DNA of 45,721 bases. It comes from Candidatus Omnitrophota bacterium (GTDB taxonomy: Bacteria; Ratteibacteria; UBA8468; MWAK01). The stretch covers positions 1 through 45,721 of the forward strand of contig JAZDPL010000077.1 of the NCBI GenBank assembly GCA_043797665.1. The letters run 5' to 3'. The stretch's first letter is position 1. Each line of letters begins with the position of its first letter. Below the pieces are notes generated by a model. The model worked only from the letters and a program-made list of their open reading frames with translations, did no database searches and was not told the DNA's origin. A program made the position numbers and the translations under genes. Below, one piece after another: positions 1,792-40,892 of this stretch.

Positions 1792-3253
<1,462 letters not shown>

Positions 3254-3255
3254 AA

Positions 3256-3303
3256 GTGCGATAAATCGCACCCTTTCCAATCCTATGGAAAGACCCGTGC
3301 TAC
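3256..3303 (-). repeat. GTAG-type REP interrupted by a family-D micro-element (3271-3297)
   Basis: Minus strand gtagca[cgggtctttccataggattggaaaggg]tgcgatttatcgcac. Confidence 0.65.
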
Positions 3304-3317
3304 CCTGGTACCTTTAT

Positions 3318-3596
3318 TCATTTGGTTGCCTTGAGTTCTTTTTCCATTTCCCTATTAACAAAAATCTTGATAAGTACCTGATATGGAATATCACGCATAT
3401 TTGCTAAATATTTTATCCGGTTCAATAATGAAACCGGGAATCTTATAGATATCGGTTTCGAAGTCGGTCTTAAATTAGGAAATAATGCCTTTTTTCCTTT
3501 AGACCAGTCAACATAATCAGTTGAATCGTGGCTATCCCAAAATTTCAATACTTCATCTTCACTTTTAAGCACCGGCGCTTTTTTTAGTTTGTTCAT
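3318..3596 (-). CDS. BrnA/CopG-like antitoxin
   Basis: SEDE..FWDSHDSTDY.DW, ISIRFP, IPYQVLIK; overlaps BrnT. Confidence 0.8.
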   Translation of the reverse strand: MNKLKKAPVLKSEDEVLKFWDSHDSTDYVDWSKGKKALFPNLRPTSKPISIRFPVSLLNRIKYLANMRDIPYQVLIKIFVNREMEKELKATK

Positions 3597-3897
3597 GGTA
3601 TCTTCTCCTTTCTTTTTTGCTCATATCTCTTGCCGAAATGATTCTTATTTTTTTAGTAGCGTCAAAACTCCTTTCAGTGAAAACCACAAAAAGCGGGCTG
3701 CTTGTTTTTGTTTTCCCTAAAGCAATGTATCGCTCTTCTGCAATTGAATGCGTTGGATCAGGAAGAATTATAAGATTTATATCAAAAAATACTTCTTCTG
3801 CTTCTGGAAATTGTACCTTATGTTTTTCCCGGATTTTATCTGCGTTCCATTTATCCCAGTCAAATTCTACTCCTGAAAATACTTTTTCTATTTCCAT
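3565..3897 (-). CDS. brnT: BrnT family toxin
   Basis: FDWDKWN...KH.V.F.EAEEVF, HS..EERY..LG, VVFTER, IRIISARDM..KER. Confidence 0.88.
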   Translation of the reverse strand: MEIEKVFSGVEFDWDKWNADKIREKHKVQFPEAEEVFFDINLIILPDPTHSIAEERYIALGKTKTSSPLFVVFTERSFDATKKIRIISARDMSKKERRRYHEQTKKSAGA

Positions 3898-3905
3898 TTT
3901 TGTAT

Positions 3906-3935
3906 ATTATACAACATACGCTGACACTTTGTCAA
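3906..3935 (-). promoter_or_regulatory. Consensus sigma70 promoter of brnTA
   Basis: TTGACA-18-TATAAT; ATG 8 nt downstream. Confidence 0.75.
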
Positions 3936-3996
3936 ATCACCGGGAAAATGTTACAGAGTTTGAACCCTCATTACCGGTCGTGATACAATGAGGGAA

Positions 3997-5103
3997 ATGG
4001 AAAGTAGGGAACTGCAGGAAAGGTTTAAAACAATAAAGAAATTGAGAGAACGACTTGTCACCCAGCCGGACGTTTCCGGGAAAAAGGAACAGATGGCAGG
4101 ATTGGAAGCAAGGATGCAAAAAAACGGGTTCTGGAAAACCCCGGAGAGCGGCCCGATAATTGAGGAGTTAAAGGTTCTGCGGGAAGAGATTGATACCTTT
4201 GCCTCACTTGAGAAAAAAGAAGCTGAGGTCTCGGCTTTTCTGGAACTCCTTGGCGAAGGACCGGACGAAAAGTTACAGAAGGAAGCGGAGGAACTGCTCA
4301 AAAACTTAGAAGACGGAACCCGGGACCTTAAAATCCGGATGCTTTTTACCACACCTGAGGACCGGCAACCGGCCATTTTAACCTTTCACGCCGGTGCGGG
4401 CGGAACCGAAGCCTGCGACTGGGTGGCGATGCTGGTCAGAATGTATAGCCGCCTGGCGGCGCGTAAAAGATGGTCCCTGGAAACAGTAGACCTCTTGCCG
4501 GGTGAAGAAGCCGGACTGAAACAAGCCACCCTGATAATCACCGGTCCCTTTGCCTGCGGGTATTTGAAAGGTGAGGCGGGTGTGCATCGTTTAGTGCGTA
4601 TCTCCCCTTTTGACGCCAACCGCCGGCGCCATACCTCATTCGCTTCCCTCTCGGTCATTCCGAAACTTCCGCCGGAAGCAAAGATTGAGATTAAAGAGGA
4701 AGAGATTGAAATTCAGACCTTTCGGGCCGGCGGAGCCGGCGGTCAGAACGTCAATAAAGTTGAAACCGCAATCCGTATCACTCACCTGCCGACCAATATC
4801 GTGGTTACCTGTCAGAACGAACGCAGCCAGTACCAGAACAAAGAAAATGCCCTCTTGATTTTAAAGAGTAGATTATACCAACTCCAGAAAGAGGAAAAAC
4901 GTAAAAAAGTGGACCTGCAGCGTCAAAGCGCCGGTGACATCGCCTGGGGTAACCAGATTCGTTCCTACGTTCTACAGCCTTACCAGATGATAAAGGACCA
5001 CCGGACCAATTACGAAACCGGTAACGTGGATGCGGTTCTGGACGGAGAATTAGACGGCTTCCTGGAAGCAGAATTAGAGGTGGGAACTGACAGCGCAGGA
5101 TAA
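3997..5103 (+). CDS. prfB: Peptide chain release factor 2
   Basis: [22 protein letters not shown] (SPF motif), [20 protein letters not shown]; alternative ATG at 3988. Confidence 0.95.
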
Positions 5104-6495
5104 ACACCTGGATTCCCGCTTACTGCACGCGGGAATGACAGAGGGGAGGCACGCGGGAATGACAGTTGAAATGGCACCGGCGAGGTAGAAGGAACCACAG
5201 ATACAGAGCAGTCCGTTTTCACCTAAGTTCTTCTCCGCCCCTTCTATTGCTTTTGCCGGCTCCGGAATAACCCGACATCTCTTACCCGGATAAATCCTAC
5301 TAAAAACCTTTTTTAACTCCGCCGGTTCGCGTGCCCGGTCGGAATCAGGCCGGGTAAAGATAAATTCCCGGCCGTACTCCCCTAAATATTTCAACATCAG
5401 CCGGTAATCTTTATCCTGAAGGACTCCCATGACAAAGCGGACATCCCTCCCCGGATAAAGTAAAGCGAGGTTGGTAATCAGGGTCTTGATTGCCGGAGGG
5501 TTATGGCTGACATCAAAGATAATTAAAGGTTCCCGGGAAACAACCTGGAGCCGGCCGGGCCAGACAATCTTCGCTAATCCGTTCCGTAAATCCTCTTCGG
5601 TTATAGTGCTGCCGGCAGACTGCAAAGCAAGCCAGGCGGTGGCAACGTTCTCAATCTGAAAACTGCCCGGTAGTGAAACGGTTAATCCGGAAATAGTTTC
5701 GTCCTGATAAGACAAAGAAAAGGATGGATTCCCGCTTACTGCACGCGGGAATAACAGAGGGGAGGCATGCGGGAATACGGGTCCCCTTTCCCCCGGATGG
5801 GAAAGAGCAGAAAGGATATCTTTGCCGGTCAGATAAAAGGACGCGGACAGTTCCTTTGCTTTCTTACGTAAAACTTTTAACGCTGCTGGTGCCTGTGGAC
5901 TGCAGACAACCGGTCTGCCCTCTTTAATGATACCCGCTTTCTCCCCGGTGATGGCAGCCAGACTGTTTCCGAGAAACCTGCGGTGTTCCATGCCAATCGG
6001 GGTAATTACGGAAACCAGAGGATTGATAACGTTGGTGGCGTCTAAACGACCGCCCATACCCACTTCCACTACTGCGTAATCTACCGGGTGGCGGGCAAAA
6101 TAAAGAAAAGCCGCAGAGGTTATCGTTTCAAAGTAGGTGGGACTATGGGGCAGGAATTTTGAGAGGGCAATAACCTGTGGTGCAATCTCAGAAATTAAAT
6201 CCGCAAAATTTTTGGGGCTGATTAGTTGATTATTAACCTGAATCCGTTCCCGGGTATCAATCAGGTGGGGTGAGGTATAGAGACCGGTACAATATCCCGC
6301 CTCGGTCAAAATACCGGCGATAATGCGGGCAACAGACCCTTTACCGTTGGTGCCGGCAATGTGGAAGGTTTTTAAATTCAGGCTCTTTTCCGGGTTACCC
6401 AGACGGGCCAGGAGCCTGTGGACGTTAGATAAACCTAACCGGATACCAAAACGTTCCCGGCTCTCCAGGAATGCAACCGCCTGCCGATAAGTCAT
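5074..6495 (-). CDS. folC: Folylpolyglutamate/dihydrofolate synthase
   Basis: [42 protein letters not shown]; true start is ATG 6495, the longer ORF runs through a MITE. Confidence 0.93.
5108..5164 (+). repeat. Family C palindrome (GGATTCCCGC-N9-GCGGGAATGACA) plus half copy; forms the folC C-terminal extension
   Basis: Near-identical to 5724-5777; related copies at 7695, 13966, 20626. Confidence 0.8.
5724..5808 (+). repeat. Family C repeat plus family D micro-element (5778-5807), in-frame inside folC
   Basis: Same sequence as 5108-5164 followed by cgggtcccctttcccccggatgggaaagag; folC frame stays open. Confidence 0.75.
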
Positions 6496-6496
6496 A

Positions 6497-6771
6497 GGGG
6501 TTGTTAAACAATAAAGTTGCCTATTTGCCAGAGGCGATTTTGGAACGAGACAAGGAGCGAAGAAGCTGGCGTACCCCCTGTGGTACGGAAGCGATGAGCG
6601 ACGCAGTCGTAGCCCAAAAGCGACCTGGCCCTTTATGGGGAGTCCCATCTTTGGGTCATTGCGGCGTTGCTCCTCGGTTATGTGCCACAGTGGGCACAAA
6701 ACCTTCGTCGCGCCTTGTACTAACCTCAAATCTGGGACTCCAAATAGTCAACTTTATTGTTTAACAACCCC
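6497..6771 (+). mobile_element. MITE-like element family A, copy 1 (275 bp), ddl/folC junction
   Basis: Perfect 23-bp TIR ggggttgttaaacaataaagttg (31 bp with 1 mismatch); body aligns with copies at 15953, 16684, 21049; no transposase. Confidence 0.9.
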
Positions 6772-7648
6772 TTAGCCGGGACAATTCTATCAATTTCAGG
6801 GTTAGTTCGTTAAAGGAGATGCCGGCGGCCCGGGCTGATTCCGGAAAGAGGCTGGTTTCGGTAAAGCCGGGAATGGTGTTGACGTCCAGAATGTATGGGT
6901 TCCCTTCTTTGTCAATAATCACCTCGCTCCGGGAAAGTCCCCGGCAGCCTAACAATTTATGTGCCTTCAAAACAACCTCCTCGGTTTTACTCACCCATTC
7001 TTCAGGTAGACGGGGTGGGATGATATGCTTGCTTCCACCCGGTGCATACTTTGCCTGATAATCGTAAAAACCGCTTGCCGGAACTATTTCAATGCTGGGT
7101 AAAACCCGGGGATTCTCATTACCCAGAATACTGACCGTAACCTCGGTACCGGAGATATATTGTTCCATAAGGACCTGGTTATCATACCGCCGCGCCTCTT
7201 TTAACGCTGCTTCCAAATCCTCTTCTTTTTTCACGATAGAAATCCCAATCGTAGAACCGCTCCGGGCGGGTTTAGACACCAGGGGAAAGAATACCGGCGG
7301 ACAGAAAGGAGGCGTTGGCAAACCTGCCGAGATAAAAAGACGTTTGGCTAAAATCTTGTCTAACGCCAGACTGCTGGCTAAAACTCCGCTGCCGGTGTAA
7401 GGAAAACCAAGGGTCTCCAGAAAACCCTGGATGGTACCATCCTCGCCGCCGGGACCATGTAAAGCGATAAAAACCGAATAGACATCCGCTATCTCTAAAA
7501 TCCGAGGGGCAAACCTTTTGTCAGCCGGGTCCAAAGTCACCACTTCAAAACCATTTTCTTTCAGTGATTTGGCTACCGCGGCGCCGCTGCGCAGGGAAAT
7601 TTCGCGCTCGGAAGATTTACCACCGGACAGTACCACTACCTTCTCCAT
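6761..7648 (-). CDS. ddl: D-alanine--D-alanine ligase
   Basis: GGKSSEREISLRSG, LHGPGGEDGTIQG, GSGVLAS, FYDYQAKY, DVNTIPGFT. Confidence 0.93.
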   Translation of the reverse strand: MEKVVVLSGGKSSEREISLRSGAAVAKSLKENGFEVVTLDPADKRFAPRILEIADVYSVFIALHGPGGEDGTIQGFLETLGFPYTGSGVLASSLALDKILAKRLFISAGLPTPPFCPPVFFPLVSKPARSGSTIGISIVKKEEDLEAALKEARRYDNQVLMEQYISGTEVTVSILGNENPRVLPSIEIVPASGFYDYQAKYAPGGSKHIIPPRLPEEWVSKTEEVVLKAHKLLGCRGLSRSEVIIDKEGNPYILDVNTIPGFTETSLFPESARAAGISFNELTLKLIELSRLRGC

Positions 7649-7660
7649 AGTTGGTCCTTG

Positions 7661-7812
7661 GTGCCCTTTCCAATCCTATGGAAAGGGAACCCGTATTCCC
7701 GCACATAGTAAGCGGGAATCCATCCCTGCCTACTGCACATGCAGAGCCTGCCCCTGTATGTAATAGACAAGGGAACAGGCTGGGTTCCTGTTAAATATAC
7801 ACAGGAATGACA
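7661..7812. repeat. Cluster of palindromes: family D (7664-7693) inside family C (to 7722), second C copy at 7780-7812
   Basis: ccctttccaatcctatggaaagggaacccg; attcccgc..gcgggaatcca; ttcctg..caggaatgaca. Confidence 0.75.
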
Positions 7813-7834
7813 GAGAGAAATTCATTATACCATA

Positions 7835-8692
7835 TCACACTATTTTGACTTCCGGTTCTAACCTGACGCCAAACTTAGCGTAGACCGCCTCCTGGACTTT
7901 TCCGGCTAATTGTAAAATGTCATTAGCGGTGGCGTTACCGGTATTAAGGATGAAATTGGCATGCTTTCCAGAGACCACCGCACCGCCAGACCGCCAGCCT
8001 TTACAGCCTGCCAGTTCAATCAGCCTTCCGGCCGGCTCTCCGCTTGGATTCTTAAAGAAAGACCCTGCAGAAGGATACACCCGGGGTGGCTGGATTTTGA
8101 TACGCTGACGCATCAATTCGGTGATTTTACGTTTTATCTCTTCTTTCCTTGTTGGAACTCCACCGAACACAGCGGAAATGATAAATGGATATTCCAGGAG
8201 GGAAGACGACCGATAAGAAAATGAAATTTCGGACTTAGCCAGGGTCTGTTCTTTCAAATTCCGGTCCAAAACGTTAACCTCTTTAACCACCAAAAAAATA
8301 GCCTGGTTTTTGGTTCCGGCATTCATCGCCAGAACACCGCCAACGTTACCTGGAATTCCACTCAAGAACTCAAATCCACCCAAACTATACTTTACCGCAA
8401 AATTAAGAAGGCGCGCAATCAAAACGCCGCTTTCGGCAAAAATAGTGTCTCCGGAAACCGAAAGATGGTTCAGTCTTCCGGTGGCAATCACGACTCCCGG
8501 GAACCCTTCGTCAGATACCAGAAGGTTACTGCCGGCGCCCAGAACCAGAAAGGGTTTGTTCTGTTCTTTTGCCTGCCGGAGCAGAACCTTTACGTCTGCA
8601 ATCGTTTCAGGCTCTGCATATACTTCCGCCGGCCCGCCCACGCGAAAGGTGGTGTGATATTTCAACGGTTCATGGTATTTTATTAACATCAT
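7835..8692 (-). CDS. murB: UDP-N-acetylenolpyruvoylglucosamine reductase
   Basis: HTTFRVGGPA, GAGSNLL, GIPGNVGG..MNAG, SAGSFFKNP, KHANFI, LEPEV. Confidence 0.93.
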   Translation of the reverse strand: MMLIKYHEPLKYHTTFRVGGPAEVYAEPETIADVKVLLRQAKEQNKPFLVLGAGSNLLVSDEGFPGVVIATGRLNHLSVSGDTIFAESGVLIARLLNFAVKYSLGGFEFLSGIPGNVGGVLAMNAGTKNQAIFLVVKEVNVLDRNLKEQTLAKSEISFSYRSSSLLEYPFIISAVFGGVPTRKEEIKRKITELMRQRIKIQPPRVYPSAGSFFKNPSGEPAGRLIELAGCKGWRSGGAVVSGKHANFILNTGNATANDILQLAGKVQEAVYAKFGVRLEPEVKIV

Positions 8693-8696
8693 TTTT

Positions 8697-8764
8697 GTAG
8701 GGGTTTGATTTATCAAACCCGCGGGTCGGATAAATCCGACCCCTACGTCAAAATATTTAATTCG
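8697..8764 (+). repeat. GTAG-type REP doublet (family B) with conserved tail
   Basis: gtagggtttgatttatcaaacccgcgggtcggataaatccgacccctac+gtcaaaatatttaattcg; copies at 19962 and 30765, halves at 40321-40429. Confidence 0.85.
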
Positions 8765-8770
8765 GTTGTA

Positions 8771-9544
8771 TTAGTATTTAATGGAAAGGAGGGTGAGACC
8801 GCGGGCGGGCGCGGTTGGACCGGCCAGGCGCCGGTCACCCGATTTCAGTATCTCTTTAACCCGCATCGACTCCATTTTTCCTCTGCCCACCTCAATTAAA
8901 GTCCCGGCGATATTACGAACCATCTTATACAAAAACCCATTCGCGATGATGGTGACGGCAATTAAACCTTTTGTGCTGAAAATTGAATCCGGTAATCTCT
9001 CAACTTTAATGTGAAAAACGGTGCGGACCGAATTGTTCGGCAACCCCTTGGCTTTACGTCCGCTGTCCTGAAAAGCCGCGAAATTATGCCGCCCTTCCAA
9101 GTATGAAGCCGCCCTTCGCATCTTCTTAACGTCTAACCGTTCCGGGAAAAACCAGGTGTAGGGTGCCAGAAGAGGATTGGAAACCGGTCCATTCTGAATG
9201 AGATACCGATAGGCTTTTTCCTTTACATCGTGCTGGGGATGGAACCGGCCGGGAACCTTTTTTACTTCAAGGACACGGACATTCTCCGGAAGAAGACCGT
9301 TCAAACCTCTTCGGATGTTTTCCGGAGAACGGCTAACCCGGGTCTGAAAAACAAATACCTGTCTCAACGCATGGACACCGGAATCCGTACGACCGGAACC
9401 GACAATATTCGCCTTTTCCGTCAGAATTTCTGAAAGGGCTTTCTCTATCTCTTCCTGAATGGAAGGCTTTTCTTTTGATTTCTGTCGCTGCCAGCCGCAG
9501 AATTCGGTTCCCTGGTAGGCGACGACCACTTTAAATTTTGCCAC
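8771..9544 (-). CDS. truA: tRNA pseudouridine(38-40) synthase
   Basis: AYQGTEFCGWQ, GSGRTDSGVHA, ANGFLYKMVRNIAG, GPTAPARGLTL. Confidence 0.93.
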   Translation of the reverse strand: MAKFKVVVAYQGTEFCGWQRQKSKEKPSIQEEIEKALSEILTEKANIVGSGRTDSGVHALRQVFVFQTRVSRSPENIRRGLNGLLPENVRVLEVKKVPGRFHPQHDVKEKAYRYLIQNGPVSNPLLAPYTWFFPERLDVKKMRRAASYLEGRHNFAAFQDSGRKAKGLPNNSVRTVFHIKVERLPDSIFSTKGLIAVTIIANGFLYKMVRNIAGTLIEVGRGKMESMRVKEILKSGDRRLAGPTAPARGLTLLSIKY

Positions 9545-10553
9545 GACCGAACAACCCCTTACTTAAAAGAACTTCTGCAATCTGCACCGCATTTAAGGCT
9601 GCACCCTTGCGAAGGTTGTCGGCGACGACCCACATTGAGAGGCTATTTTGGGTTGAAATATCCTCCCGGATTCTGCCCACAAAGACATCGTCCTTCCCGG
9701 CGGTCAGAACGGGTAAAGGATACAATGATTTCTCCGGTTCGTCAACGATGGTGATACCCGGGGTTGCCCGCAAAATTTCAGCAGCCTCCCGGGGAGAAAT
9801 CTTCCGTTCAAATTCCACGGTAATCGCTTCACTATGGCTGACCTTCACCGGAACCCTTACGCAGGTTGCATTTACCCGGATGGAACTGTCAGCCATAATC
9901 TTCTTTGTTTCGTTAACCATCTTCATCTCTTCCTTGGTATAACCGTTAGGGAGAAAAACGTCTATCTGAGGAATGAGATTATGCGCAATCTGGTGCGGAA
10001 ACACAGTCGGTTTTATTTCTTTACCTTCATCCAGGGCTTTAATTTGGTCTTCTAATTCCCAGATCGCCTTCTGACCGGCACCGGAAACAGACTGGTAGGT
10101 AGACACAACAATCCGTTTAATCTTTGCCCGGCGGTGCAATGGGTAAAGGGCACAGACCATCTGGATGGTGGAACAGTTGGGATTGGCGATAATTTTTGTT
10201 TTAGAAGTCAAAACCTCCGGATTCACTTCCGGCACCACCAGGGGAACATCCGGGTCCATCCGCCAGGCAGAGGAGTTGTCCACGACAAAGATGCCTAACT
10301 TGGCAGCCCGGGGCGCATAATCCCGGCTGATGGCTGCGCCGGCAGAAAAAAGAAGGAGAGCGATGTCCGGCGTAAAAGATTCCGGAACCAGACACTCCAC
10401 TAAAACTCTCTGACCGCGGAAAGGAATCTCCTTGCCTTCCGAGCGCTCTGAAGCAAAAAGCCGGAGAAAGCCTACCGGAAATCTGCGCTCTTCCAGAATG
10501 GAGACCATCCGTCGGCCTACCGCACCGGTCGCGCCAACTACACCAACCTGCAA
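9531..10553 (-). CDS. asd: Aspartate-semialdehyde dehydrogenase
   Basis: VGATGAVG, DNSSAWRM, ANPNCSTIQM, YQSVSGAG, DNLRKGAALNAVQ. Confidence 0.95.
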   Translation of the reverse strand: MQVGVVGATGAVGRRMVSILEERRFPVGFLRLFASERSEGKEIPFRGQRVLVECLVPESFTPDIALLLFSAGAAISRDYAPRAAKLGIFVVDNSSAWRMDPDVPLVVPEVNPEVLTSKTKIIANPNCSTIQMVCALYPLHRRAKIKRIVVSTYQSVSGAGQKAIWELEDQIKALDEGKEIKPTVFPHQIAHNLIPQIDVFLPNGYTKEEMKMVNETKKIMADSSIRVNATCVRVPVKVSHSEAITVEFERKISPREAAEILRATPGITIVDEPEKSLYPLPVLTAGKDDVFVGRIREDISTQNSLSMWVVADNLRKGAALNAVQIAEVLLSKGLFGRGKI

Positions 10554-10595
10554 GTCGTCACCCCCACCTACCCTCCCACCTTTCGGGGGAAGGAA

Positions 10596-10829
10596 TTAAG
10601 CACTTTCCTGTTTCCGTAAGACCACCTGATAGTTCCGGGGACCGCGGCTGGGCACGTTGAGTTCGGTTAAAATCACGTGTCCCTCCCGGGCTAACCACCC
10701 CAGACTCATCAGAAGGTAGTCCCGCGGTTCCTCGATATCCCGGCAGATATCTTTAAAAATAGCCCCTTCCGGCTTCTTGTCCAGATACTGCAAGATATCA
10801 CCCGCCCTAAACCCAATCTTGGTAATCAT
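10596..10829 (-). CDS. Small winged-helix protein (DUF2582-like)
   Basis: IG..AGDI.QYL...LLMSLGWLAREG pattern; GGAGG SD. Confidence 0.7.
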   Translation of the reverse strand: MITKIGFRAGDILQYLDKKPEGAIFKDICRDIEEPRDYLLMSLGWLAREGHVILTELNVPSRGPRNYQVVLRKQESA

Positions 10830-10841
10830 ACCGCCTCCATA

Positions 10842-10928
10842 CGCAGGCTAAAGCCTGCACGGGTCTCCCCTATGAATAGGGAAGGGCTACCCCTAATCTT
10901 CAACCCGCAGGCTAAAGCCTGCGGCTAC
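10842..10928 (-). repeat. Two GTAG REPs (cgcaggctaaagcctgcggctac); the first carries a family-D insert (10860-10886), the second lies in the C-terminus of the upstream CDS
   Basis: Direct comparison of the two copies and a third at 18824-18848. Confidence 0.75.
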
Positions 10929-11150
10929 CCTTTTGTTGAGGTTACCGCAACGGGGACAACGGGAAAAAGATTCCGAGACGCTGTCAACGTACTGATACAA
11001 ACAAAGGTTACAATTCCAGAGCCGACCCTCTTTCGGGCTGAAATCCGCAGCCCGGCGCCGGCTTTCACTTACCACCCAGAAAATGGTGATAACTCCTGTC
11101 CCGACCAGAAGATAAATCCCCAAAGCAAGGCTTAAGTCAATCGGTATCAT
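10893..11150 (-). CDS. Small membrane-anchored zinc-ribbon protein
   Basis: N-terminal TM helix, CNLC...CPRC. Confidence 0.65.
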   Translation of the reverse strand: MIPIDLSLALGIYLLVGTGVITIFWVVSESRRRAADFSPKEGRLWNCNLCLYQYVDSVSESFSRCPRCGNLNKRVAAGFSLRVED

Positions 11151-11156
11151 AAGAAT

Positions 11157-11256
11157 TGTCATTGCGAGCCCGAAGGGCGTGGCAATCTAGAGATTGCTCC
11201 CTTGCCAATCCTATGGCAAGGGGACCCGTGTCGCAAACCGCGCTCCTCGCAATGAC
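11157..11256. repeat. Family E inverted repeat (tgtcattgcgag...ctcgcaatgac) with family-D insert at 11199-11228
   Basis: Terminal IR gtcattgcgag/ctcgcaatgac, inner gcaatct/agattgc. Confidence 0.8.
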
Positions 11257-11333
11257 TCCTTCTCTTTATTATTTTACCTCAAAATAACCCTTTTGTCTAT
11301 TAGGGGTTGCTAAACATGCTATAATAATAAACA

Positions 11334-11714
11334 ATGGCTGAATACACAATTCAAGAAGCGAAGAAGGGGTTGAAAGAACGGTTGGCCGGGATTGAAACCT
11401 GGCCCAACCAGTTCCCTGGCTACACCATTACGATTGTCTTTTCGGAATTCACCTCAGTCTGCCCCAAAACAGGCTTACCGGATTTCGGCACCGTCACCAT
11501 CACCTACCAGCCCGATAAAAGATGTCTGGAACTGAAATCCCTTAAGTTATACTTTCTGGCTTACCGGAACCTGGGTATATTTTACGAAAATGCGGTTAAC
11601 CGCATCCTGAAAGACATTGTCTCCGCCGCCAAGCCAAAATGGGCTAAAGTAACCGGAGAATTCCACACCCGGGGCGGAATGAAAAGCATCGTGGAAGCAA
11701 AATATGGGTCTTAA
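11334..11714 (+). CDS. queF: NADPH-dependent 7-cyano-7-deazaguanine reductase (type I)
   Basis: EFTSVCPKTGLPDFG, ELKSLKLYF, RGGM. Confidence 0.92.
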   Translation: MAEYTIQEAKKGLKERLAGIETWPNQFPGYTITIVFSEFTSVCPKTGLPDFGTVTITYQPDKRCLELKSLKLYFLAYRNLGIFYENAVNRILKDIVSAAKPKWAKVTGEFHTRGGMKSIVEAKYGS

Positions 11715-13545
11715 AGTAACCTTCCTGCCGGAAAAGGTAACGGTAACTGCGCTTCCGGACATTACCGTACTGGAACTTGTCCGCAGAGCCAATATCGGAA
11801 TCACCGCCCTCTGCGGGGGCCGGGGTACCTGCGGGAAATGCCAGGTAAAGCTGGAACCGGCCCCGGTCCCGAACGCAGTAGAAAAAAAGGTGATTTCCGA
11901 ACCGAAATTAGCTGAAGGATTCCGGTTGGCGTGTCAAACAAAGGTCACGGACAGGGACATAACCGTACTGGTTCCCCTGGAAAGCCGGTTTCTTAATCTG
12001 AAAGTTCTGGTTTCCGGGCTGAGCCGGGATATCACGGTTAGAACCAACATCAAGAAGTACTCTCTCCAGCTCTCCCCGCCGACGATTGAAGAACAGCGAC
12101 CGGATTGGGAAAGGATTCAGCAGGCAATATCCGTCGCTTCAGGAATTACCGCCGGGGAGATTGAAACCAATATCTACCTTTTACGCCGGCTCCCGGAAAT
12201 TCTGCGTAAAAGCGCCTTTCGGGTGACCGCGGTCCTGATTGGCAAATCTCTTATCTCTGTGGAACCCGGTGATACCACCGCCAACTGTTTTGGCGTCGCA
12301 TTTGATTTAGGAACCACTACCATCGTCGGCTCACTCCTGGACATCAAAAACGCCCGGGAATTAGCGGTTGCCTCCCGCTCTAATCCCCAGAGTATTTTTG
12401 GCGCGGACGTCATCAGCCGGATTAACTACACGATGACCGAAACGGAAGGAGGAAAGCGTCTGCAGTCCGAAGCGGTAAATGCTTTCAACGAAATTATTAC
12501 CGAACTGTGTGAAAAGACCAACACCAGACCGGAGCACATCTACGAAGCGATGGTGGTCGGGAACACCGCTATGGAACACCTTTTTTTGGGTCTGCCCGCC
12601 TTCTCCCTTGCTACCAGTCCATACGTTGGAGTATGCCAGACCCCTTTGAGCCTTTCCGCAAAAAAGTTGGGCTTTGCCATTAACGAAGATGCGGTGACCC
12701 AGGCAGCCCCGCTCATCAGCGGCTTTGTGGGTGGTGACACGGTCGCGGGAATCTTAGCCACCAACCTGCACCGGGAAAAGGCATTGCGTCTCTTCATTGA
12801 TATCGGGACCAACGGCGAAATAGTAATCGGTAACCGCGAAGGTCTCTGGTGTGCCTCAGCGGCGGCCGGTCCGGCTTTTGAAGGTGCCAACATCCACTTT
12901 GGAATGCGGGCTGAATCCGGAGCCATAGACAAGGTCAGTATTGAAGAGGACGTCCGGTACAGCACGATCGGAGAAGCGCCCGCCCGGGGTATCTGCGGAA
13001 CCGGTCTGGTAGAAGCGGTGAGCGAATTGCTGCGCCGCGGGATTATCGGTGAAGATGGCCGGATGAAGCACCCTTCGGAAATGGCTCACCTTCCCGAAAA
13101 AATCCGCAGTAGAATTCAACAAGGAGAAAAAGACATCTTCTTCCTTCTGGTACCGGAAAACGGAATCAGCCTGTTTCAGAAAGATATCCGGCAATTGCAA
13201 TTAGCCAAGGCAGCCATCGCGGCCGGGATTGAAACCCTCCTGCAGAAGATTCCCCTTTCTCTTTCCGAATTGGACGAGGTACTTCTGGCCGGTGCCTTTG
13301 GCTCGTACATTGACCCCGCCGCCGCCCTCCGTTTAGGCCTTCTACCGGCTGTTCCCATGGAAAAGATTCGTTTTGTAGGCAACACCGCGCTTACCGGTTC
13401 CAAGATGATGCTTCTCTCCGAAGAGATGAAGAAAGAAGCGGAATACATTCCGGAGGTCTGTCAGTACGTGGAACTCTTTCACGAGAAGGAGTTTATGGAC
13501 CTTTTTGTAAACAAGTTACCTTTCCCGCCTCAAAATCCTCTTTGA
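11704..13545 (+). CDS. ASKHA-type [2Fe-2S] ATP-dependent reductive activator (RACo/DUF4445 family)
   Basis: CGGRGTCGKC...RLACQ, DLGTTT, GADVISRI, GFVGGD, DIGTNGE, AGPAFEG, GICGTG, QLAKAAI, LAGAFG. Confidence 0.88.
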   Translation: MGLKVTFLPEKVTVTALPDITVLELVRRANIGITALCGGRGTCGKCQVKLEPAPVPNAVEKKVISEPKLAEGFRLACQTKVTDRDITVLVPLESRFLNLKVLVSGLSRDITVRTNIKKYSLQLSPPTIEEQRPDWERIQQAISVASGITAGEIETNIYLLRRLPEILRKSAFRVTAVLIGKSLISVEPGDTTANCFGVAFDLGTTTIVGSLLDIKNARELAVASRSNPQSIFGADVISRINYTMTETEGGKRLQSEAVNAFNEIITELCEKTNTRPEHIYEAMVVGNTAMEHLFLGLPAFSLATSPYVGVCQTPLSLSAKKLGFAINEDAVTQAAPLISGFVGGDTVAGILATNLHREKALRLFIDIGTNGEIVIGNREGLWCASAAAGPAFEGANIHFGMRAESGAIDKVSIEEDVRYSTIGEAPARGICGTGLVEAVSELLRRGIIGEDGRMKHPSEMAHLPEKIRSRIQQGEKDIFFLLVPENGISLFQKDIRQLQLAKAAIAAGIETLLQKIPLSLSELDEVLLAGAFGSYIDPAAALRLGLLPAVPMEKIRFVGNTALTGSKMMLLSEEMKKEAEYIPEVCQYVELFHEKEFMDLFVNKLPFPPQNPL

Positions 13546-13936
13546 CCTTATTCAGGATTCCGTTGACAAACCGGTAGGATTCTTCGGTACCGTAAGTCTT
13601 TGCCAGTTCCACCGCCTCATCGATGCAGACCACCGGGGGTACCGAACTGTCTTTTTGAAGCATTTCCGAAAGGGCCAGACGCAAAATATTCCGGTCTAAC
13701 AGCGCCACCCGGTCAAAGGACCAGTTAGACGAATACCGGGCAATCAGACGGTCGATCTCCTTCCGGTTTTGTCTTACAATACCAACCAGATTCAGAGCGA
13801 ACCCGGCAATAGAGGGTTCCGCACCACTTATATCCACCATTTCGGTCAGTCTCTCTTCCAGATTTTTGTCCGGCCGTATCTCTAAGGAATAGAGACACCG
13901 CAACGCCAATTCCCTTCCCTTTCTCCTCTTTCCCAT
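13493..13936 (-). CDS. nusB: Transcription antitermination factor NusB
   Basis: RRKGRELAL, WSFDRVALLDRNILRL, IDEAVELAK, FVNGIL. Confidence 0.92.
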   Translation of the reverse strand: MGKRRKGRELALRCLYSLEIRPDKNLEERLTEMVDISGAEPSIAGFALNLVGIVRQNRKEIDRLIARYSSNWSFDRVALLDRNILRLALSEMLQKDSSVPPVVCIDEAVELAKTYGTEESYRFVNGILNKVKEDFEAGKVTCLQKGP

Positions 13937-13965
13937 AAATCCTACTACAAACGACTTGAGTAAAT

Positions 13966-14042
13966 TGTCATTCCTGCGGATAGTAAGCAGGAATCCATAC
14001 CCCTAATCACTGGATTCCCGCTAAAAACATGCGGGAATGACA
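13966..14042. repeat. Inverted pair of family C palindromes
   Basis: tgtcattcctgc..gcaggaatcca / ctggattcccgc..gcgggaatgaca. Confidence 0.8.
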
Positions 14043-14061
14043 TAATAAATATACGTTTGTA

Positions 14062-14754
14062 TTAATTGCGGAAGCGGTATTTTATCAGAGTCCAGACGGC
14101 GTAAATTCCGTCGGAAAACCGGATCTTTTTCCCGGCCTTTATATTACGGGGATAATAATGGATTGGTACTTCGCAGATCCGGTATCCCTTCTTAATTATC
14201 CTGGCGGTAACCTCCGGACAAAACTCAAACCTCCGGCACTTAAGGTCCAGACTTTGCAAGACATCCCTTTTGAAGACCTTGTATCCGGTAGGTTCATCGG
14301 TAATTTTAGTCCGGTAAAGAAGTCTGGTCAGAAAAGAGAGCATCTTTCCGCCCAAAAAGAAACCTAACGAGGATATCTTCTTGGCACTCAGTTCCCGCGA
14401 GCCATAAACTACACTTACTTTACCCTCTATAATCGGCCGGATAAGACTAAAATAGTCCTGCGGGTCATACTCCAAATCCGCATCCTGAACGATGATGATA
14501 TCGCCGGTTGCCTGCGGTAAACCGGTACGGATGGCTGCCCCTTTACCTAAATTGCCATGATGTTGCATAATTATAATCCGGTTATCGGTGTCCTGGTCTC
14601 CGGCAATTTCGTTTAAAAAATAACCGGTCCGGTCCGTGGAGCCGTCGTTGACAATAATAATCTCCTTGGGTAATCTGACCTCCTTTACCCGCCGGACAAT
14701 TTCAATGATGGTACTCTCCTCGTTATAGACCGGCATAATGACCGATATCTTCAT
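14062..14754 (-). CDS. GT2 glycosyltransferase (DPM1-like)
   Basis: [38 protein letters not shown]. Confidence 0.9.
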
Positions 14755-15914
14755 AGACACGGTAATCTCCTAATCCCCTTGCCAGCAATAACAGCCAGCA
14801 GAGGTAATACTGGAATATGATAACGGGGAATAGCCAGAAGAAAGATGTGGGTCAAGGTAAAATAGGTTATCATTAAAATAGGGATAAAAACAAGTCGGTT
14901 TTTCTCTTGAAAAGCGGCCCGGATGCCCAGAACTGCCAGAAAAAGAAGCAAATACTGAAGAATAAAAAGAACTACTTTTTCTATCTGCCTCCCTTCCAGA
15001 ACTCTCCGGCCGCCGGGAATCTGAAGCCAGAATCGTCCCATCTTGCGGAAACAGAGAAAGGCATAAGCCCCGGGATTCTGTTTAATGTTCTTTATCCCCT
15101 CCGCAAAGAACTTTTTGTCCGCTTCAACAGAAGAAAGACCCTTGACTAAATTATTTGCATCGCTAAAGTCTTGCCAATTATAGTCTCCATTCCAGGGAGG
15201 GTAACTACCCACCCAAAGGTTAAAACCACCTCCGGTAGCCACCGGGATAAACTGACGGAAAACCAAAACATTTCTTACTGTCCAGGGTAAAATCGGCACC
15301 AGCATCCCCAAAGAAAATAAAACCACAAAAACCAGGTTTTCCTTTACCTTTCGGGAAATGCAGTATAGCCCTATCAAAAGAAAAGGGGGGAAAAGAAGAG
15401 TGACCGGTCTGGTCAACGTCGCCAAGCCTGAAAGAATCCCCGACCGGACCCAGTCAGATTTCTTTTTTTCCTTCCAGGCACGCACCGAAAAAAATACCGT
15501 TGAGGTCAATAATAAAGTGGTCAGGGTTTCGGTAAGGATATAAGAAGTAGAAGCAATCAGTGAAGGATTGATTACGGCTAAAGATGCGCCCAAAAAGGCG
15601 GTTTTTTTGTTTTGAAAAATCTTTTTACCTAAAAAATATACCAGAACGCAGGCGGCCGCATCCAAGACTGCCTGTACGATTCTGACCGCAAGAAAATTGT
15701 GCCCAAAAAAGAAGTAAATAACGGTCAGGAAAAGGGGATAGAGGGGTGGTCGTTTTATGTTGGCGGAAAAACCGAAGCCCCCTAATAGATTGAGGGCGTA
15801 ATCATCATACTCCGGTGTGTCCCCCGCGTCAAGGGGCACAAGGATAACGAAGAGAAGACGCAAAAGAAAAGCGGAAAGAAAGATAAGCCAGACTGCCCTT
15901 TTCTCAATTTTCAC
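14751..15914 (-). CDS. ArnT/PMT-like (GT-C) membrane glycosyltransferase
   Basis: Multi-[29 protein letters not shown]. Confidence 0.8.
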
Positions 15915-15952
15915 AGAACACCACGTATCTCAAGTTAAATTTTCCGCCATTA

Positions 15953-16255
15953 GGGGTTGCTAAACAATAAAACAGACTATTTGGAGTCCCAGATTTGAGG
16001 TCAGTGCAAGGCACGACAAGGGTCCCCTTGTCATAGGATTGACAAGGGAAGGTTATGTGCCCACTATGGCACATAACCGAGGAGCAACGCCGCAATGACC
16101 CAAAGATGGGACCCCCCGAAGGGCCAGGCCGCTTTTGGGCTGCGATTGCGTCGCTCATCGCTTCCGTACCACAGGGGGTACGCCAGCTTCTTCGCTCCTT
16201 GTCTCGCTCCAAAATCGCCTCTGGCAAATAGTCAGTTTTATTGTTTAGCAACCCC
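15953..16255 (-). mobile_element. Family A copy 2 (303 bp = 273 + 30-bp family-D insert at 16019-16048)
   Basis: TIR ggggttgctaaacaataaa; TTA on both sides. Confidence 0.9.
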
Positions 16256-17420
16256 TTACCCCTATTTTTTCCCTAATCGGTTCCGGCAGGGCTTCCAGCA
16301 GGTCCTCCAGGTCAAGCCCTTTTGTCTCAAAAGAGAAGTCAAAACCTTTTTTGCCCATGGTGCCGGAAAGGGATATCTCTCCACCTGTTTGGGTAAAGAT
16401 ACGCACCTGGTTCAAGCGGCCTGATTCCGCAAAAAAGTCATAATAACCTTTAACCTCTCCGGAAAGCGGTGGAATCTGCTGCTGAGGGAAGAAAAGGTTC
16501 TGAAAGGAGAGGCAATAATCAACAGACTGCGCCTGCCACTGGTCTTTCTTGTGCCGGAAAGTAAAGTATACTTGACCATCCATCAACCCTTCGGTTGGCA
16601 TATCAGGCAGGTTAATTGATTTTTTCAATTCGGAAAGAGAAATCTTAACCAGATTCACGGAAAGTTTTCCATACTGACCTTCAGGGGCTGTCGCAGAATA
16701 AAGTTGACTATTTGGAGTCCCGGATTTGAGGTCAGTGCAAGGCGCGACAAAGGCTCTGTGCCCACTGTGGCACATAGCCGAGAAACAACGCCGCAATGAC
16801 CCAAAGATGGGACTCCCCGAAGGGCCAGACCGCTTTTGGGCTGCGACTGCGTCGCTCATCGCTTGCGTAGCGCTGTGGCTACGCAAGATTCTTTGCTCCT
16901 TGTCTCGCTCCAAAATCGCCTCTGGCAAATAGGCAACTTTATTCTGCGACAGCCCCTTAGTCTCAATCTGCCCGGAAAGATTAATCTCGCCGACCTTATC
17001 AATCTTTACCCGTAAGCCGGATACTTGATAGATACCGCTGATGAAATCACCTTTTACTTTGCCGGTGAGCCGGAGTGGTCTGGGTTCACCGGAACCAAAC
17101 TGCCCTTTTCCCGTCACTGCAAACAGGAAGGGTTCTTTAGAAACAGCTCTCTGCATCGTAATATTCGTTAAGGAAAGGGAAATTGGTGGTTTACCCCAAG
17201 CAGAAAAGTTAACCTCTTTTACGGAAAGACCGGGGCCGGGCAGTAGCATCGGTTCAACCAACCATACCTTTCCCTGACTATCGTGGTTTATCCGCCAGGC
17301 GATATACCTTCCAGCCAGTTCCGGCATGCTAAAACCTATCCCAAGAACGCTAAATGCAAACAGGCTGCCTAAGATAAGCAAAAATACCCTCGTCAGTTTT
17401 AATCGAACGATAGTAGTCAT
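16245..17420 (-). CDS. Hypothetical membrane-anchored beta-rich protein carrying an in-frame family-A insertion
   Basis: N-terminal TM helix; 92-aa element peptide internal; stop supplied by the copy 2 TIR. Confidence 0.6.
   Translation of the reverse strand: MTTIVRLKLTRVFLLILGSLFAFSVLGIGFSMPELAGRYIAWRINHDSQGKVWLVEPMLLPGPGLSVKEVNFSAWGKPPISLSLTNITMQRAVSKEPFLFAVTGKGQFGSGEPRPLRLTGKVKGDFISGIYQVSGLRVKIDKVGEINLSGQIETKGLSQNKVAYLPEAILERDKEQRILRSHSATQAMSDAVAAQKRSGPSGSPIFGSLRRCFSAMCHSGHRAFVAPCTDLKSGTPNSQLYSATAPEGQYGKLSVNLVKISLSELKKSINLPDMPTEGLMDGQVYFTFRHKKDQWQAQSVDYCLSFQNLFFPQQQIPPLSGEVKGYYDFFAESGRLNQVRIFTQTGGEISLSGTMGKKGFDFSFETKGLDLEDLLEALPEPIREKIGVRGC
16684..16956 (-). mobile_element. Family A copy 3 (273 bp), in-frame in a CDS
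   Basis: TIR ggggctgtcgcagaataaagttg; flanks tca/tta. Confidence 0.9.
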
Positions 17421-38795: not shown

Positions 38796-40892
38796 TCAAG
38801 TAGCGGTCGGATTCATCTGAGTATTTACCAGAAAGATGTTGATTTCCGTCAGGACTTTTGCCGGTGTAATCTCTTTCCAGCAGGAAAATCCGGTGGGACA
38901 ATCGGTTTTGAGGCAGGGGCTGCAAGGAAAACCGGAGGAAATGATACGGTAAGGGGTCTGGTAAGGACCATACCGGCGCCAGTCGCCCGGTCCAAAGAGC
39001 ACCGCTACCGGACACTTGACCGCACTGGCTAAGTGGACCGTTCCGGTGTCGTTGGAAACAAGGAGTTTTGCACCGGAAAGGAGGGCGACTAATTGCGCCA
39101 GGGTGGTCTGACCGGAAAGGTTGATGAATTTAATGGAGAGGAATTGAACAAGTTGTTCCGCGAAGGGTACTTCATCCTTATCCCCTACTATTACAGAAGG
39201 CAGGCGGTATTTCTGCCAGATTAACTCAGTCAGTCGGGCAAACCCTTCTGGTGACCACCGCTTCTTATCCCAGCGGGCACCCGGATTTAAAACCACATAA
39301 TTATACTTTTCCAGACTAAACCGCAGGAACGTCTCTTCCAGCCAGGCATGGTCAATATTATTTTCCGGGAAATAGAGCGTTTTATCATCAGGCAAAGGCA
39401 AGAAATAACCCAACAACCTCTGCCACCGGTCTGCCTCGTGTTCTCCTTCCTTAGGGGTTGTCCCCTTAGGTCCAAAACAAGTCCGGAGATAGAAGTTTGC
39501 CTTCCTTTTGGCTCCACTCCTTATTCCGAAGATTGACTGCCGGAAATCAAAGATTAAACTGTATCTCTCCTGTTGGATACTTTTCAAAAATGACTCTTTT
39601 TCTCCTTTCCCTGACTTCTTGTCGTAGTAAAATATTTTGCGGAAATAGGGGTGGTTTTCAAAATAACCCGCAGACCTGCGGTCGGTAATGATGTCAATGC
39701 CCGCCATCGGGAAGTTTAGCCGAATTGCCCGGTAGGCGGGTGAAAGAATCAGGCTATCCCCTAAACAACTAACCCCCACCACTAAAATTTTCTCTTCCCG
39801 GAGAAGGGTGCCTGCCTTTTGACTTACCCTTTCTGTTTCCGCCAGGACTTTTTCCGGCATAATCTTAACTAAATCAGACACCATTTCCCTGGTAAGTTCT
39901 TCTAACGTGATAACATTGATATATCCTTCTTCCGATAAATCCTGTAAAGCCCGGTCAAAAACCAAAGGCCTTTTTCGCCTTCGTTCAACACGCAGAACGA
40001 CCGTCCTCCTGCCGGAACCGGCTGACTCGGAAACCATATTGATGCTGTCCTCAGTGGTCAAAATTATGTCCGCCTTTGCCAGAAATTCTGTGACCGGATT
40101 GGCCCTGGTTTCCCGGTACAGCACAAGATGGAACCGCGCCGAGTCACCTAACTTTCCTCTCAAAGCCTGCTCCACCTCTTTTGGAGTCCGGCGGCTGGTG
40201 GTGATATAAACCTCGGCGGGTAAGTTTTCCGCAATTTCAATCAAACGGGTGGCAAGTTCTTGAGCCCAATTTTTAGAAACTACGTAATTTTTGTCATTGC
40301 CGCCGATTAAGACCGCAATTCGGGTCGGATAAATCCGACCCCTACCAACCGAATCTGTAGGCGCGGGGTCCCCAATGTCAAATTGGGGGTTCCCTACCAT
40401 CAAGGTAGGGGCTTGATTTATCAAACCCGAAGGTTTTATCCGGTTGGTAGCACCTTTGATTACCATCATATTCGGAGCAGGAACATCTCTGCGGTGCCGC
40501 CAGAGGTCATGTTCCGGAATTACAATAAGGTCAAAAAGGGACAGCCGGATAAGGTCAGGCCAGAGTACCTGAATGCTATCAGCCAGAAACGCCCGGCTCA
40601 AAAGAAGGTTTATGGAAGACAGCCTTCCGCCGGCGGAAATTACCAGGCAGGGTTTTGGACATTTTGGTACTAATTCATTTTCTGTAAAAACGAGCGATTT
40701 AAGCAAAAAACGTATGGAGGAAAGAGACAAAAGAGGGGTCAGATTGGCAGTTAGGATTAGAATAAGACGCGGTAAAACCCCCAGGGAGGGAATCGTGATT
40801 ACTTCAATCTCTGCGGAAGGAATCCTTTCGGCAATTCCGACCGCCTGATTAAAGTTGCCCCGGTTACCATCGTCCAGAACAACAATCTTCAT
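38796..40892 (-). CDS. Fusion of an ELM1/GtrOC1-like domain and a GT9 heptosyltransferase-like domain
   Basis: N-terminal DG..G..NQ..G, FDLIVIPEHD, AVLIGG, TTSRRTP, TEDSINMVSE; C-terminal LGD, NPGARW..KRW, SNDTG.VHLA, LFGP. Confidence 0.8.
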   Translation of the reverse strand: MKIVVLDDGNRGNFNQAVGIAERIPSAEIEVITIPSLGVLPRLILILTANLTPLLSLSSIRFLLKSLVFTENELVPKCPKPCLVISAGGRLSSINLLLSRAFLADSIQVLWPDLIRLSLFDLIVIPEHDLWRHRRDVPAPNMMVIKGATNRIKPSGLINQAPTLMVGNPQFDIGDPAPTDSVGRGRIYPTRIAVLIGGNDKNYVVSKNWAQELATRLIEIAENLPAEVYITTSRRTPKEVEQALRGKLGDSARFHLVLYRETRANPVTEFLAKADIILTTEDSINMVSESAGSGRRTVVLRVERRRKRPLVFDRALQDLSEEGYINVITLEELTREMVSDLVKIMPEKVLAETERVSQKAGTLLREEKILVVGVSCLGDSLILSPAYRAIRLNFPMAGIDIITDRRSAGYFENHPYFRKIFYYDKKSGKGEKESFLKSIQQERYSLIFDFRQSIFGIRSGAKRKANFYLRTCFGPKGTTPKEGEHEADRWQRLLGYFLPLPDDKTLYFPENNIDHAWLEETFLRFSLEKYNYVVLNPGARWDKKRWSPEGFARLTELIWQKYRLPSVIVGDKDEVPFAEQLVQFLSIKFINLSGQTTLAQLVALLSGAKLLVSNDTGTVHLASAVKCPVAVLFGPGDWRRYGPYQTPYRIISSGFPCSPCLKTDCPTGFSCWKEITPAKVLTEINIFLVNTQMNPTAT
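39454..39465. mobile_element. 12-bp family A scar in the GT9 domain
   Basis: tta-ggggttgtcccc-tta; peptide KGTTP. Confidence 0.65.
40321..40429. repeat. Array of three GTAG REP units translated in-frame
   Basis: cgggtcggataaatccgacccctac and gtaggggcttgatttatcaaacccg are the two halves of family B, with a third GTAG..CTAC unit between. Confidence 0.85.

Follow-up and report, generated by a model that had tools for sequence, protein, structure and literature searches.

The small dispersed repeats (SDR) of Nostoc punctiforme and its relatives, which Elhai et al. are said to have described in 2008 in Genome Res 18:1484, are reportedly hairpins with compensatory changes that nest both in other repeats and in themselves, and mobile DNAs of less than 30 nt are reported to have been described in cyanobacteria in that year. 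They are the closest known system to the subject of this report, a family of hairpin elements of 25-31 nt with copies in a 45,721-nt stretch of DNA (the window), which is contig C45 (JAZDPL010000077.1) of an 86%-complete, 2.69-Mb metagenome assembly of a Candidatus Omnitrophota bacterium (GCA_043797665.1, here genome G000). SDR5 is 21 nt long (PMC13756078), is precisely inserted into HIP1 (PMC4390886) and is confined to one lineage, the Nostocaceae, with function unknown (PMC5861425); SDRs are also mentioned in PMC3116915 and PMC2884548, and these citing papers give no function or mover. The element described here resembles SDRs in size class, in insertion into another repeat motif and in restriction to a single lineage, and it shows the same set of properties, being a dispersed tiny repeat (123 + 18 copies in 2.69 Mb) and compensatory hairpin with filled and empty orthologous sites that nests in other repeats and in itself. 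Its footprint differs from that described for SDR5, however, in that SDR5 enters one octamer precisely, whereas the element here enters many hosts at a loose motif, at the cost of one target base (73 of 84 sites). The lineage also differs. On balance, and with a slight preference, we regard the element as an SDR-like mobile DNA, ultra-small and non-autonomous. What we did not find reported is the junction with its one-base loss: the literature searched, which lay outside the original 2008 SDR description, held nothing on this element family or on such a junction.

Other described systems match it in part. The repetitive extragenic palindromes (REP) of REP/REPIN-RAYT systems share a hairpin of 20-40 nt, many copies, a short 5' foot on one strand and some copies in frame (PMC3733652, PMC6006769, PMC8266576, PMC3116915), and REPs are likewise found inside genes and inside other palindromes (PMC3733652). 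In contrast to these, the main form of the element has no GTAG/GTGG or CGTC tetranucleotide 0-2 nt 5' of its hairpin, forms no inverted doublets and does not flank the RAYT gene, and it inserts into REPs rather than forming them, at a target that is YC and not C|T. Insertion sequences of the IS200/IS605 type and their non-autonomous derivatives have a hairpin, no inverted repeats, no duplication and a target like their terminal bases (PMC6006769). They have distinct left and right end hairpins and insert 3' of a target motif with nothing gained or lost, whereas the element has one hairpin and loses one base, and neither a strand bias nor a full-length partner was seen. The Ssn system (PMC11893778) is relevant to the host only and not to the element, as the GTCATTC host repeats and small GIY-YIG genes resemble the Ssn NTS/SRM system. 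Finally, a miniature inverted-repeat transposable element (MITE) of a DDE transposon would have terminal inverted repeats and a target-site duplication, whereas the ends here are asymmetric and nothing is duplicated.

Hairpin anatomy and the loss of one target base

Under a strict copy definition, counted separately from a looser tail-anchored hairpin scan, G000 contains 123 copies. Of these, 88 have 30 nt, 24 have 25 nt, 9 have 31 nt and 2 have 28 nt; 18 further copies of a third subfamily, of 25 nt, bring the total to about 140. All three subfamilies (one of 30 nt and two of 25 nt) have a CCC start, a perfect stem of 7-9 bp closed by GGG and a 6-nt tail with a CCCG end. The long form is CCCT-N5-loop-N5'-AGGG-NACCCG with a loop of the type ATYCDA, and the 30-nt copies fold into a 9-bp stem, a 6-nt loop and a 6-nt 3' tail, with z scores of roughly -4 to -5 relative to shuffled sequences. 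Both short forms have a 7-bp stem and a 5-nt loop, the third subfamily reading CCCCAA-loop-TTGGGG plus the tail with its CCCG end. The foot is CGGGT plus one free base, and GTAG occurs only within the stem of the short form; by eye, two paired GTAG REPs could have given rise to the short form, but this idea was rejected as the GTAG-less long form is the more widespread. Since the tail-anchored scan gave 100 matches where two shuffled versions of the genome gave 5 and 7, and hairpins with a stem of at least 9 bp numbered 67 against 0, the family is not a product of chance. The covariation of the stems noticed in a preliminary description of the window is borne out: pairing is 100% in 18 distinct copies and 5 of the 9 pairs vary on both sides, in an alignment hand-picked for distinctness whose shuffle control overstates, and pair 6-19 takes all four Watson-Crick types over 82 variants. 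Rfam models gave no match to the window at gathering scores.

The evidence on how the element joins its target comes from the junctions. At 208 distinct sites the base after the element is T in 148, C in 57 and A in 3, and hence it is not the case, as had been thought, that a T always follows; instead, the next base tracks the host. Empty alleles, sought in a pooled 3.7 Mb of sequence, were matched for 84 of 205 scored sites; 73 of them had a 2-nt middle, 6 a 1-nt middle and 5 a longer one. Where the element is followed by T the empty allele has TC in 36 cases and CC in 2, and where it is followed by C the empty allele has CC in 18 and TC in 2 (Fisher p 7e-11), while CT is never the best middle. 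Because the TC and CC middles match the base after the element, we conclude that at most sites a target YC very probably becomes element plus Y, with the C lost and nothing duplicated, which agrees with the lack of a target-site duplication reported previously.

The usual net gain is therefore the length of the element minus one, that is, 29 nt for a 30-mer and 24 nt for a 25-mer. The earlier view that lengths are multiples of three fails on this count and on the lengths themselves (24 of the 123 strict copies are of 25 nt and 9 of 31 nt), and it is the 25-, 28- and 31-nt forms that can sit in frame, with 30-nt copies surviving almost only outside genes. Specifically, long open frames hold 11 of 40 copies of nominal 25, 28 or 31 nt versus 3 of 107 of 30 nt (one 29-nt copy included; p 4e-5), where open reading frames (ORFs) were called by a crude script that over-calls coding DNA (90%) and some in-frame copies sit within host repeats that had themselves entered genes. 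Of the third subfamily, 14 of 28 copies lie in open frames. This frame test is independent of the empty alleles and agrees with the junction rule. The footprint is sharp, with a defined target motif, a one-base loss, a length rule for survival in genes and sites that are filled in one sister genome and empty in another. The family also shows a route by which inserts of 8-10 residues can enter ordinary proteins.

Several facts count against the rule as stated. For 121 of the 205 sites there is no empty allele to compare, the empty alleles are mostly paralogous repeats and not the true ancestor, 11 of the 84 matched sites depart from the 2-nt middle, and some copies in one host repeat, the MITE-like family A, can also be read as a clean 30-nt insertion into a TTT variant.

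Copies in the window

Six hairpin copies had been placed in the window by the preliminary description, and all of them are real, lie on the strands and at the positions it gave and interrupt a repeat, but two more are present, a nested pair at 40362-40410. The copies are as follows.

3271..3297, plus strand: decayed long-form copy (27 nt) at the 3' foot of a GTAG REP hairpin
5778..5807, minus strand: long-form copy within the folC-like ORF 5074-6729, where a GTCATTC-type repeat has its G|TCATT tag
7664..7693, plus strand: long-form copy of the commonest variant, a short way upstream of ddl, where a GTCATTC-type repeat has its G|TCATT tag
10860..10886, minus strand: decayed copy of the long form (27 nt), immediately following the GTAG tag in a REP
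11199..11228, plus strand: long-form copy inside a GTCATT...AATGAC double-hairpin repeat (host ~11157-11256), in its inner arm
16019..16048, minus strand: long-form copy in a MITE-like family A repeat (~15951-16259), net +30
40362..40410, minus strand: short-form (25-nt) copy in a GTAG REP inside ORF 38796-40892, its 3' tail split by a nested copy
40364..40388, minus strand: third-subfamily copy (25 nt) nested in the tail of the short-form copy, with the same junction rule

The host of the copy at 3271 spans ~3256-3303, with the REP on the minus strand; the copy still folds (z -5.2), and empty hosts have CC at its insertion point in 13 cases and TC in 1. At 7664 empty hosts have TC in 71 of 92 matches, and at 10860, where the copy folds no better than shuffles (z -1.1), they have CC in 8, TC in 3 and GC in 1. 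A relative in run X10 is without whole host repeats at these loci. The copy at 3271 lies at the edge of a 744-bp block (3246-3991) that is missing in a related species and encodes a BrnT toxin (3565-3897) together with a probable antitoxin.

The insertion at 5778..5807 is also present at the sister-species locus L111, and the frame of the folC-like ORF stays open through both host repeat and element. The gene here carries a repeat-derived in-frame peptide (window 5720-5810), and its relatives in another genus have different hairpin-derived peptides in the same loop, which suggests that the loop is an insertion-tolerant hot spot.

Family A is a MITE-like repeat of roughly 279 bp (a relative skips exactly 279 bases), found in the window at 6495-6775, 15951-16259, 16680-16960 and 21045-21325. 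It is mostly one frame open end to end, often bridging adjacent genes of an operon, and its filled copies are longer by a multiple of three. The filled and empty sites described for this family stand, in that the copy at 16019 makes its host 30 nt longer than empty copies, but the +30 is an exception to the usual gain, and the sister species (G054) has a +29 version. Filled copies in G000 reach +30 via differing extra bases, with the host frame mostly open, and the open frame 15904-16251 (minus strand) crosses both host and element. These lengths fit selection for frame.

Repeats as hosts, mobility and distribution

Reconstructed target sites have not-G at -2 and not-A at -1, followed by Y, C, not-T, Y and not-G, and the motif HB|YCVYH on one strand fits 126 of 160 long-form sites. 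The commonest site is G|TCATT, with 39 sites and 20 stem variants there alone. The motif resembles the element's own end-to-start junction, a likeness that would explain both dimers and self-nesting. A guide-like covariation between element and target was tried and rejected: several position pairs beat all 300 shuffles, but the tables reflect an association of subfamily with host and show no base pairing.

The hosts comprise GTAG REPs, GTCATTC-type repeats, CCCCT...AGGGG hairpins, the family A MITE and the element itself. By BLAST, 108 of 122 copies have a repeat within 10 nt and 90 of 122 are spanned by one. Intergenic location does not account for this, as it was feared it might, and free-standing copies are not the majority: among intergenic copies alone, 73 of 80 lie within 10 nt of a repeat and 62 of 80 are spanned, versus 174 and 126 of 600 random intergenic YC sites. 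When identical events of element plus site are collapsed the figures are 63 and 53 of 69, and with a k-mer mask 46 of 67 copies fall in repeats versus 19.5% for the null and 24-27% for a motif-matched null. The bias for repeats is strong and several-fold beyond intergenic location plus motif, and we consider that it probably reflects a real preference for repeat DNA beyond survival bias. Nevertheless, the claim that the element occurs only inside other repeats has to be given up, since 14 of the 122 tested copies are repeat-free within 10 nt (several of these look like low-copy hairpins) and orthologous pairs include insertions in unique coding sequence (L235, L250); unique DNA also hosts copies at C36:24862, C27:4030 and C47:7980. 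With free-standing copies in existence, "hyperparasite" is too strong a term. The proposal of a structure-targeted element is upheld as to the strong repeat bias, but targeting by structure is without support: sites lie in stems, loops and the hairpin foot, with a clear loose sequence preference and no fixed stem or loop position (44-67% paired across positions, like random sites in repeats).

The element is almost certainly mobile, because a comparison with a sister species shows filled and empty sites and it nests in itself up to three deep. The comparison used G054, a sister species of G000 at about 90% identity, and covers part of the orthologous pairs; among the matches listed, net differences of +29 occur at C85:22599, C85:49568, L190/C8 and L069/C85, and of +24 at L235 (two), L250, L225/C14, L235/C86 and C68/L072. 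Self-nesting is two deep in L011, L084, L101 and L107 and three deep in L114, mostly by insertion in the ATTCAA loop and also in the stem, the tail and the opposite strand of the element. Three head-to-tail dimers with a period of 24 are found in G054, one of which corresponds to a monomer at an apparently matching G000 site. A repeated unit of ~120 bp with the 3' half of a tRNA-Leu at its end (L078 near 1435; G000:C15:3327-3452) has partial copies on C52, C56 and C71 and is filled in G054 and empty in G000. The idea that the element acts there as a tRNA intron was discarded, as the interrupted tRNA-Leu is a 3' remnant only and ARAGORN finds no tRNA there, whether the element is included or removed.

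Of 65 genomes of the phylum, 7 contain the long form when one mismatch is tolerated, and these belong to a single family (88 matches in G000, 35 in G054 and 1-3 in each of five genomes of another genus; 0 for a reversed-pattern control). Both short forms occur in 2 of the 65, within the genus of G000 only. Scans of GTDB and of metagenomes, made with the long-form pattern, gave 27 exact matches in two assemblies besides G000 and 113 metagenome stretches, respectively; 80 of the 113 are among the matches listed, and about a dozen of 67 distinct matches have weak stems and are chance-like. The viral collection gave no match for any of the three element patterns. In G056 and G057 (L033, L034) copies lie inside another repeat family, with an end CAGGCCTGCAGCTTGG or a tRNA-like arm, and adjoin ribosomal-protein and regulatory genes.

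Candidate movers and rival explanations

We propose that the element is most likely moved in trans by an enzyme of single-stranded DNA through a cut-and-join reaction at repeat-rich DNA. In this mechanism a host enzyme would bind the folded single strand of the element and cut the single-stranded target exposed at hairpin-rich repeats, beside the motif, and the element would then be joined in, with one target base lost either in the joining or in second-strand repair. An HUH-family enzyme is a tentative candidate for the mover. The element has HUH-like traits: on the opposite strand its hairpin carries a short 5' foot, it lacks inverted ends, it causes no duplication and its target is like the element end, the last of which is also a feature of the guide model for IS200/IS605 (PMC6006769). 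A RAYT-like gene is also present in G000. A doubtful, more specific version is that a single-stranded hairpin of 25-30 nt is joined 5' of a YC step with the C removed, by a chemistry not yet described, in which the host enzyme would see target and element junction alike; if true, the one-base-loss footprint could identify the mover of SDR-type elements in general.

A good deal speaks against this proposal. The null for the repeat preference takes no account of repeats tolerating insertion better, and no intermediate was seen. There is no bias relative to transcription (34 sense and 39 antisense between co-directional genes) and none relative to local GC skew (46 versus 38, with 39 flat), skew being a weak proxy for replication strand in a fragmented assembly, where IS200/IS605 elements are described as favouring the lagging strand. 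The eight ORFs with copies on both sides are, as read from sequence, housekeeping or unrelated genes. The RAYTs that have been described cleave at C|T, and also at CA, and lose no base on rejoining (PMC8266576), and the RAYT-like gene of G000 (143 aa, contig C47) scores 63 bits, below the NCBIfam cut-off of 80. The suggestion of an HUH/RAYT-type mover made in the preliminary description suffers accordingly, as this gene is flanked by GTAG REPs and not by the element and the lost base is unlike a C|T cut and rejoining. Y1 genes are present in 7 of 9 family genomes, and 1 of 11 loci inspected in relatives has the element, inside a flanking GTAG REP. More generally, no gene bounded by the element was found among Y1/RAYT, reverse transcriptase, IS110, GIY-YIG and DUF559 genes or orphan tails, a search that lay outside the IS91-type, serine and tyrosine recombinase families, and no long element was found among the 41 orphan tails.

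The main rival, which we regard as unlikely, is that the hairpins patch breaks. Here nucleases of the host repeats (RAYT at GTAG REPs, Ssn-type GIY-YIG at GTCATTC repeats and possibly DUF559) would nick single-stranded DNA, and a repair polymerase or reverse transcriptase would copy the hairpin, as DNA or RNA, into the break, dropping one base. The base loss suits repair better than transesterification, and small Ssn-like GIY-YIG genes flanked by GTCATTC repeats do occur in G000 (C85:18946-19167, C89:10780-11001 and the broken-looking C36:28921-29088), although no Ssn gene is flanked by the element; moreover, SsnA cuts single-stranded DNA a few bases upstream of its hairpin (PMC11893778), which is near the commonest site here, G|TCATT. 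All three genomes with exact copies (G000, G054 and G055) have reverse transcriptases, but these differ, being of the group II intron type in G054 and G055 and in G000 a 346-aa protein below all NCBIfam cut-offs (L266, G000:C50:9209-9832), which resembles a diversity-generating retroelement enzyme judging from an AAC-rich repeat upstream. No reverse transcriptase was found in 6 of the 9 family genomes, all incomplete, four of which carry copies, and DUF559 was not found in G054. The element ends are in addition very uniform for repair, and neither motif nor rule is any different in unique coding DNA or in the tRNA remnant. More improbable again is that repeats are not targeted at all and that insertion occurs at the loose motif anywhere, with selection clearing genes and promoters and host repeats spreading filled copies. 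The frame-shifting 30-nt copies are nearly missing from genes, the insertions keep no fixed stem or loop position, the filled family A copies share one element variant and so spread after one insertion, and copies lie in other apparently neutral DNA, in the tRNA-Leu 3' remnant and beside a truncated IS21 istB (L120). The enrichment nevertheless persists within intergenic DNA when motif-matched and when identical events are collapsed, the in-frame 25-nt forms are still mostly in repeats, and most non-repeat intergenic DNA would have to be intolerant.

We give very little weight to the idea that a conservative recombinase, be it of the IS110 bridge, serine or tyrosine type, uses the element as a miniature substrate. 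G000 has two IS110 transposase genes and G054 one, and the target resembles the element junction, but by our reasoning conservative exchange puts in the entire circle, keeps both target bases in order and would not yield element plus Y with the C lost; the IS110 flanks inspected had no element-like ends among those listed, and IS110 was not found in 3 of 7 carrier genomes. As for an assembly or library artefact, conceivable for hairpin-rich sites in a metagenome assembly, it can practically be dismissed because orthologous insertions recur in independent assemblies (L111, L118); the element is also confined to one family, shows decay and compensatory change and respects reading frames. On contig C3 (L001, 1375-2727) G000 also encodes a protein of 450 aa whose N-terminus is Y1/HUH-like and whose middle derives from a repeat; a membrane segment is predicted in it as well.

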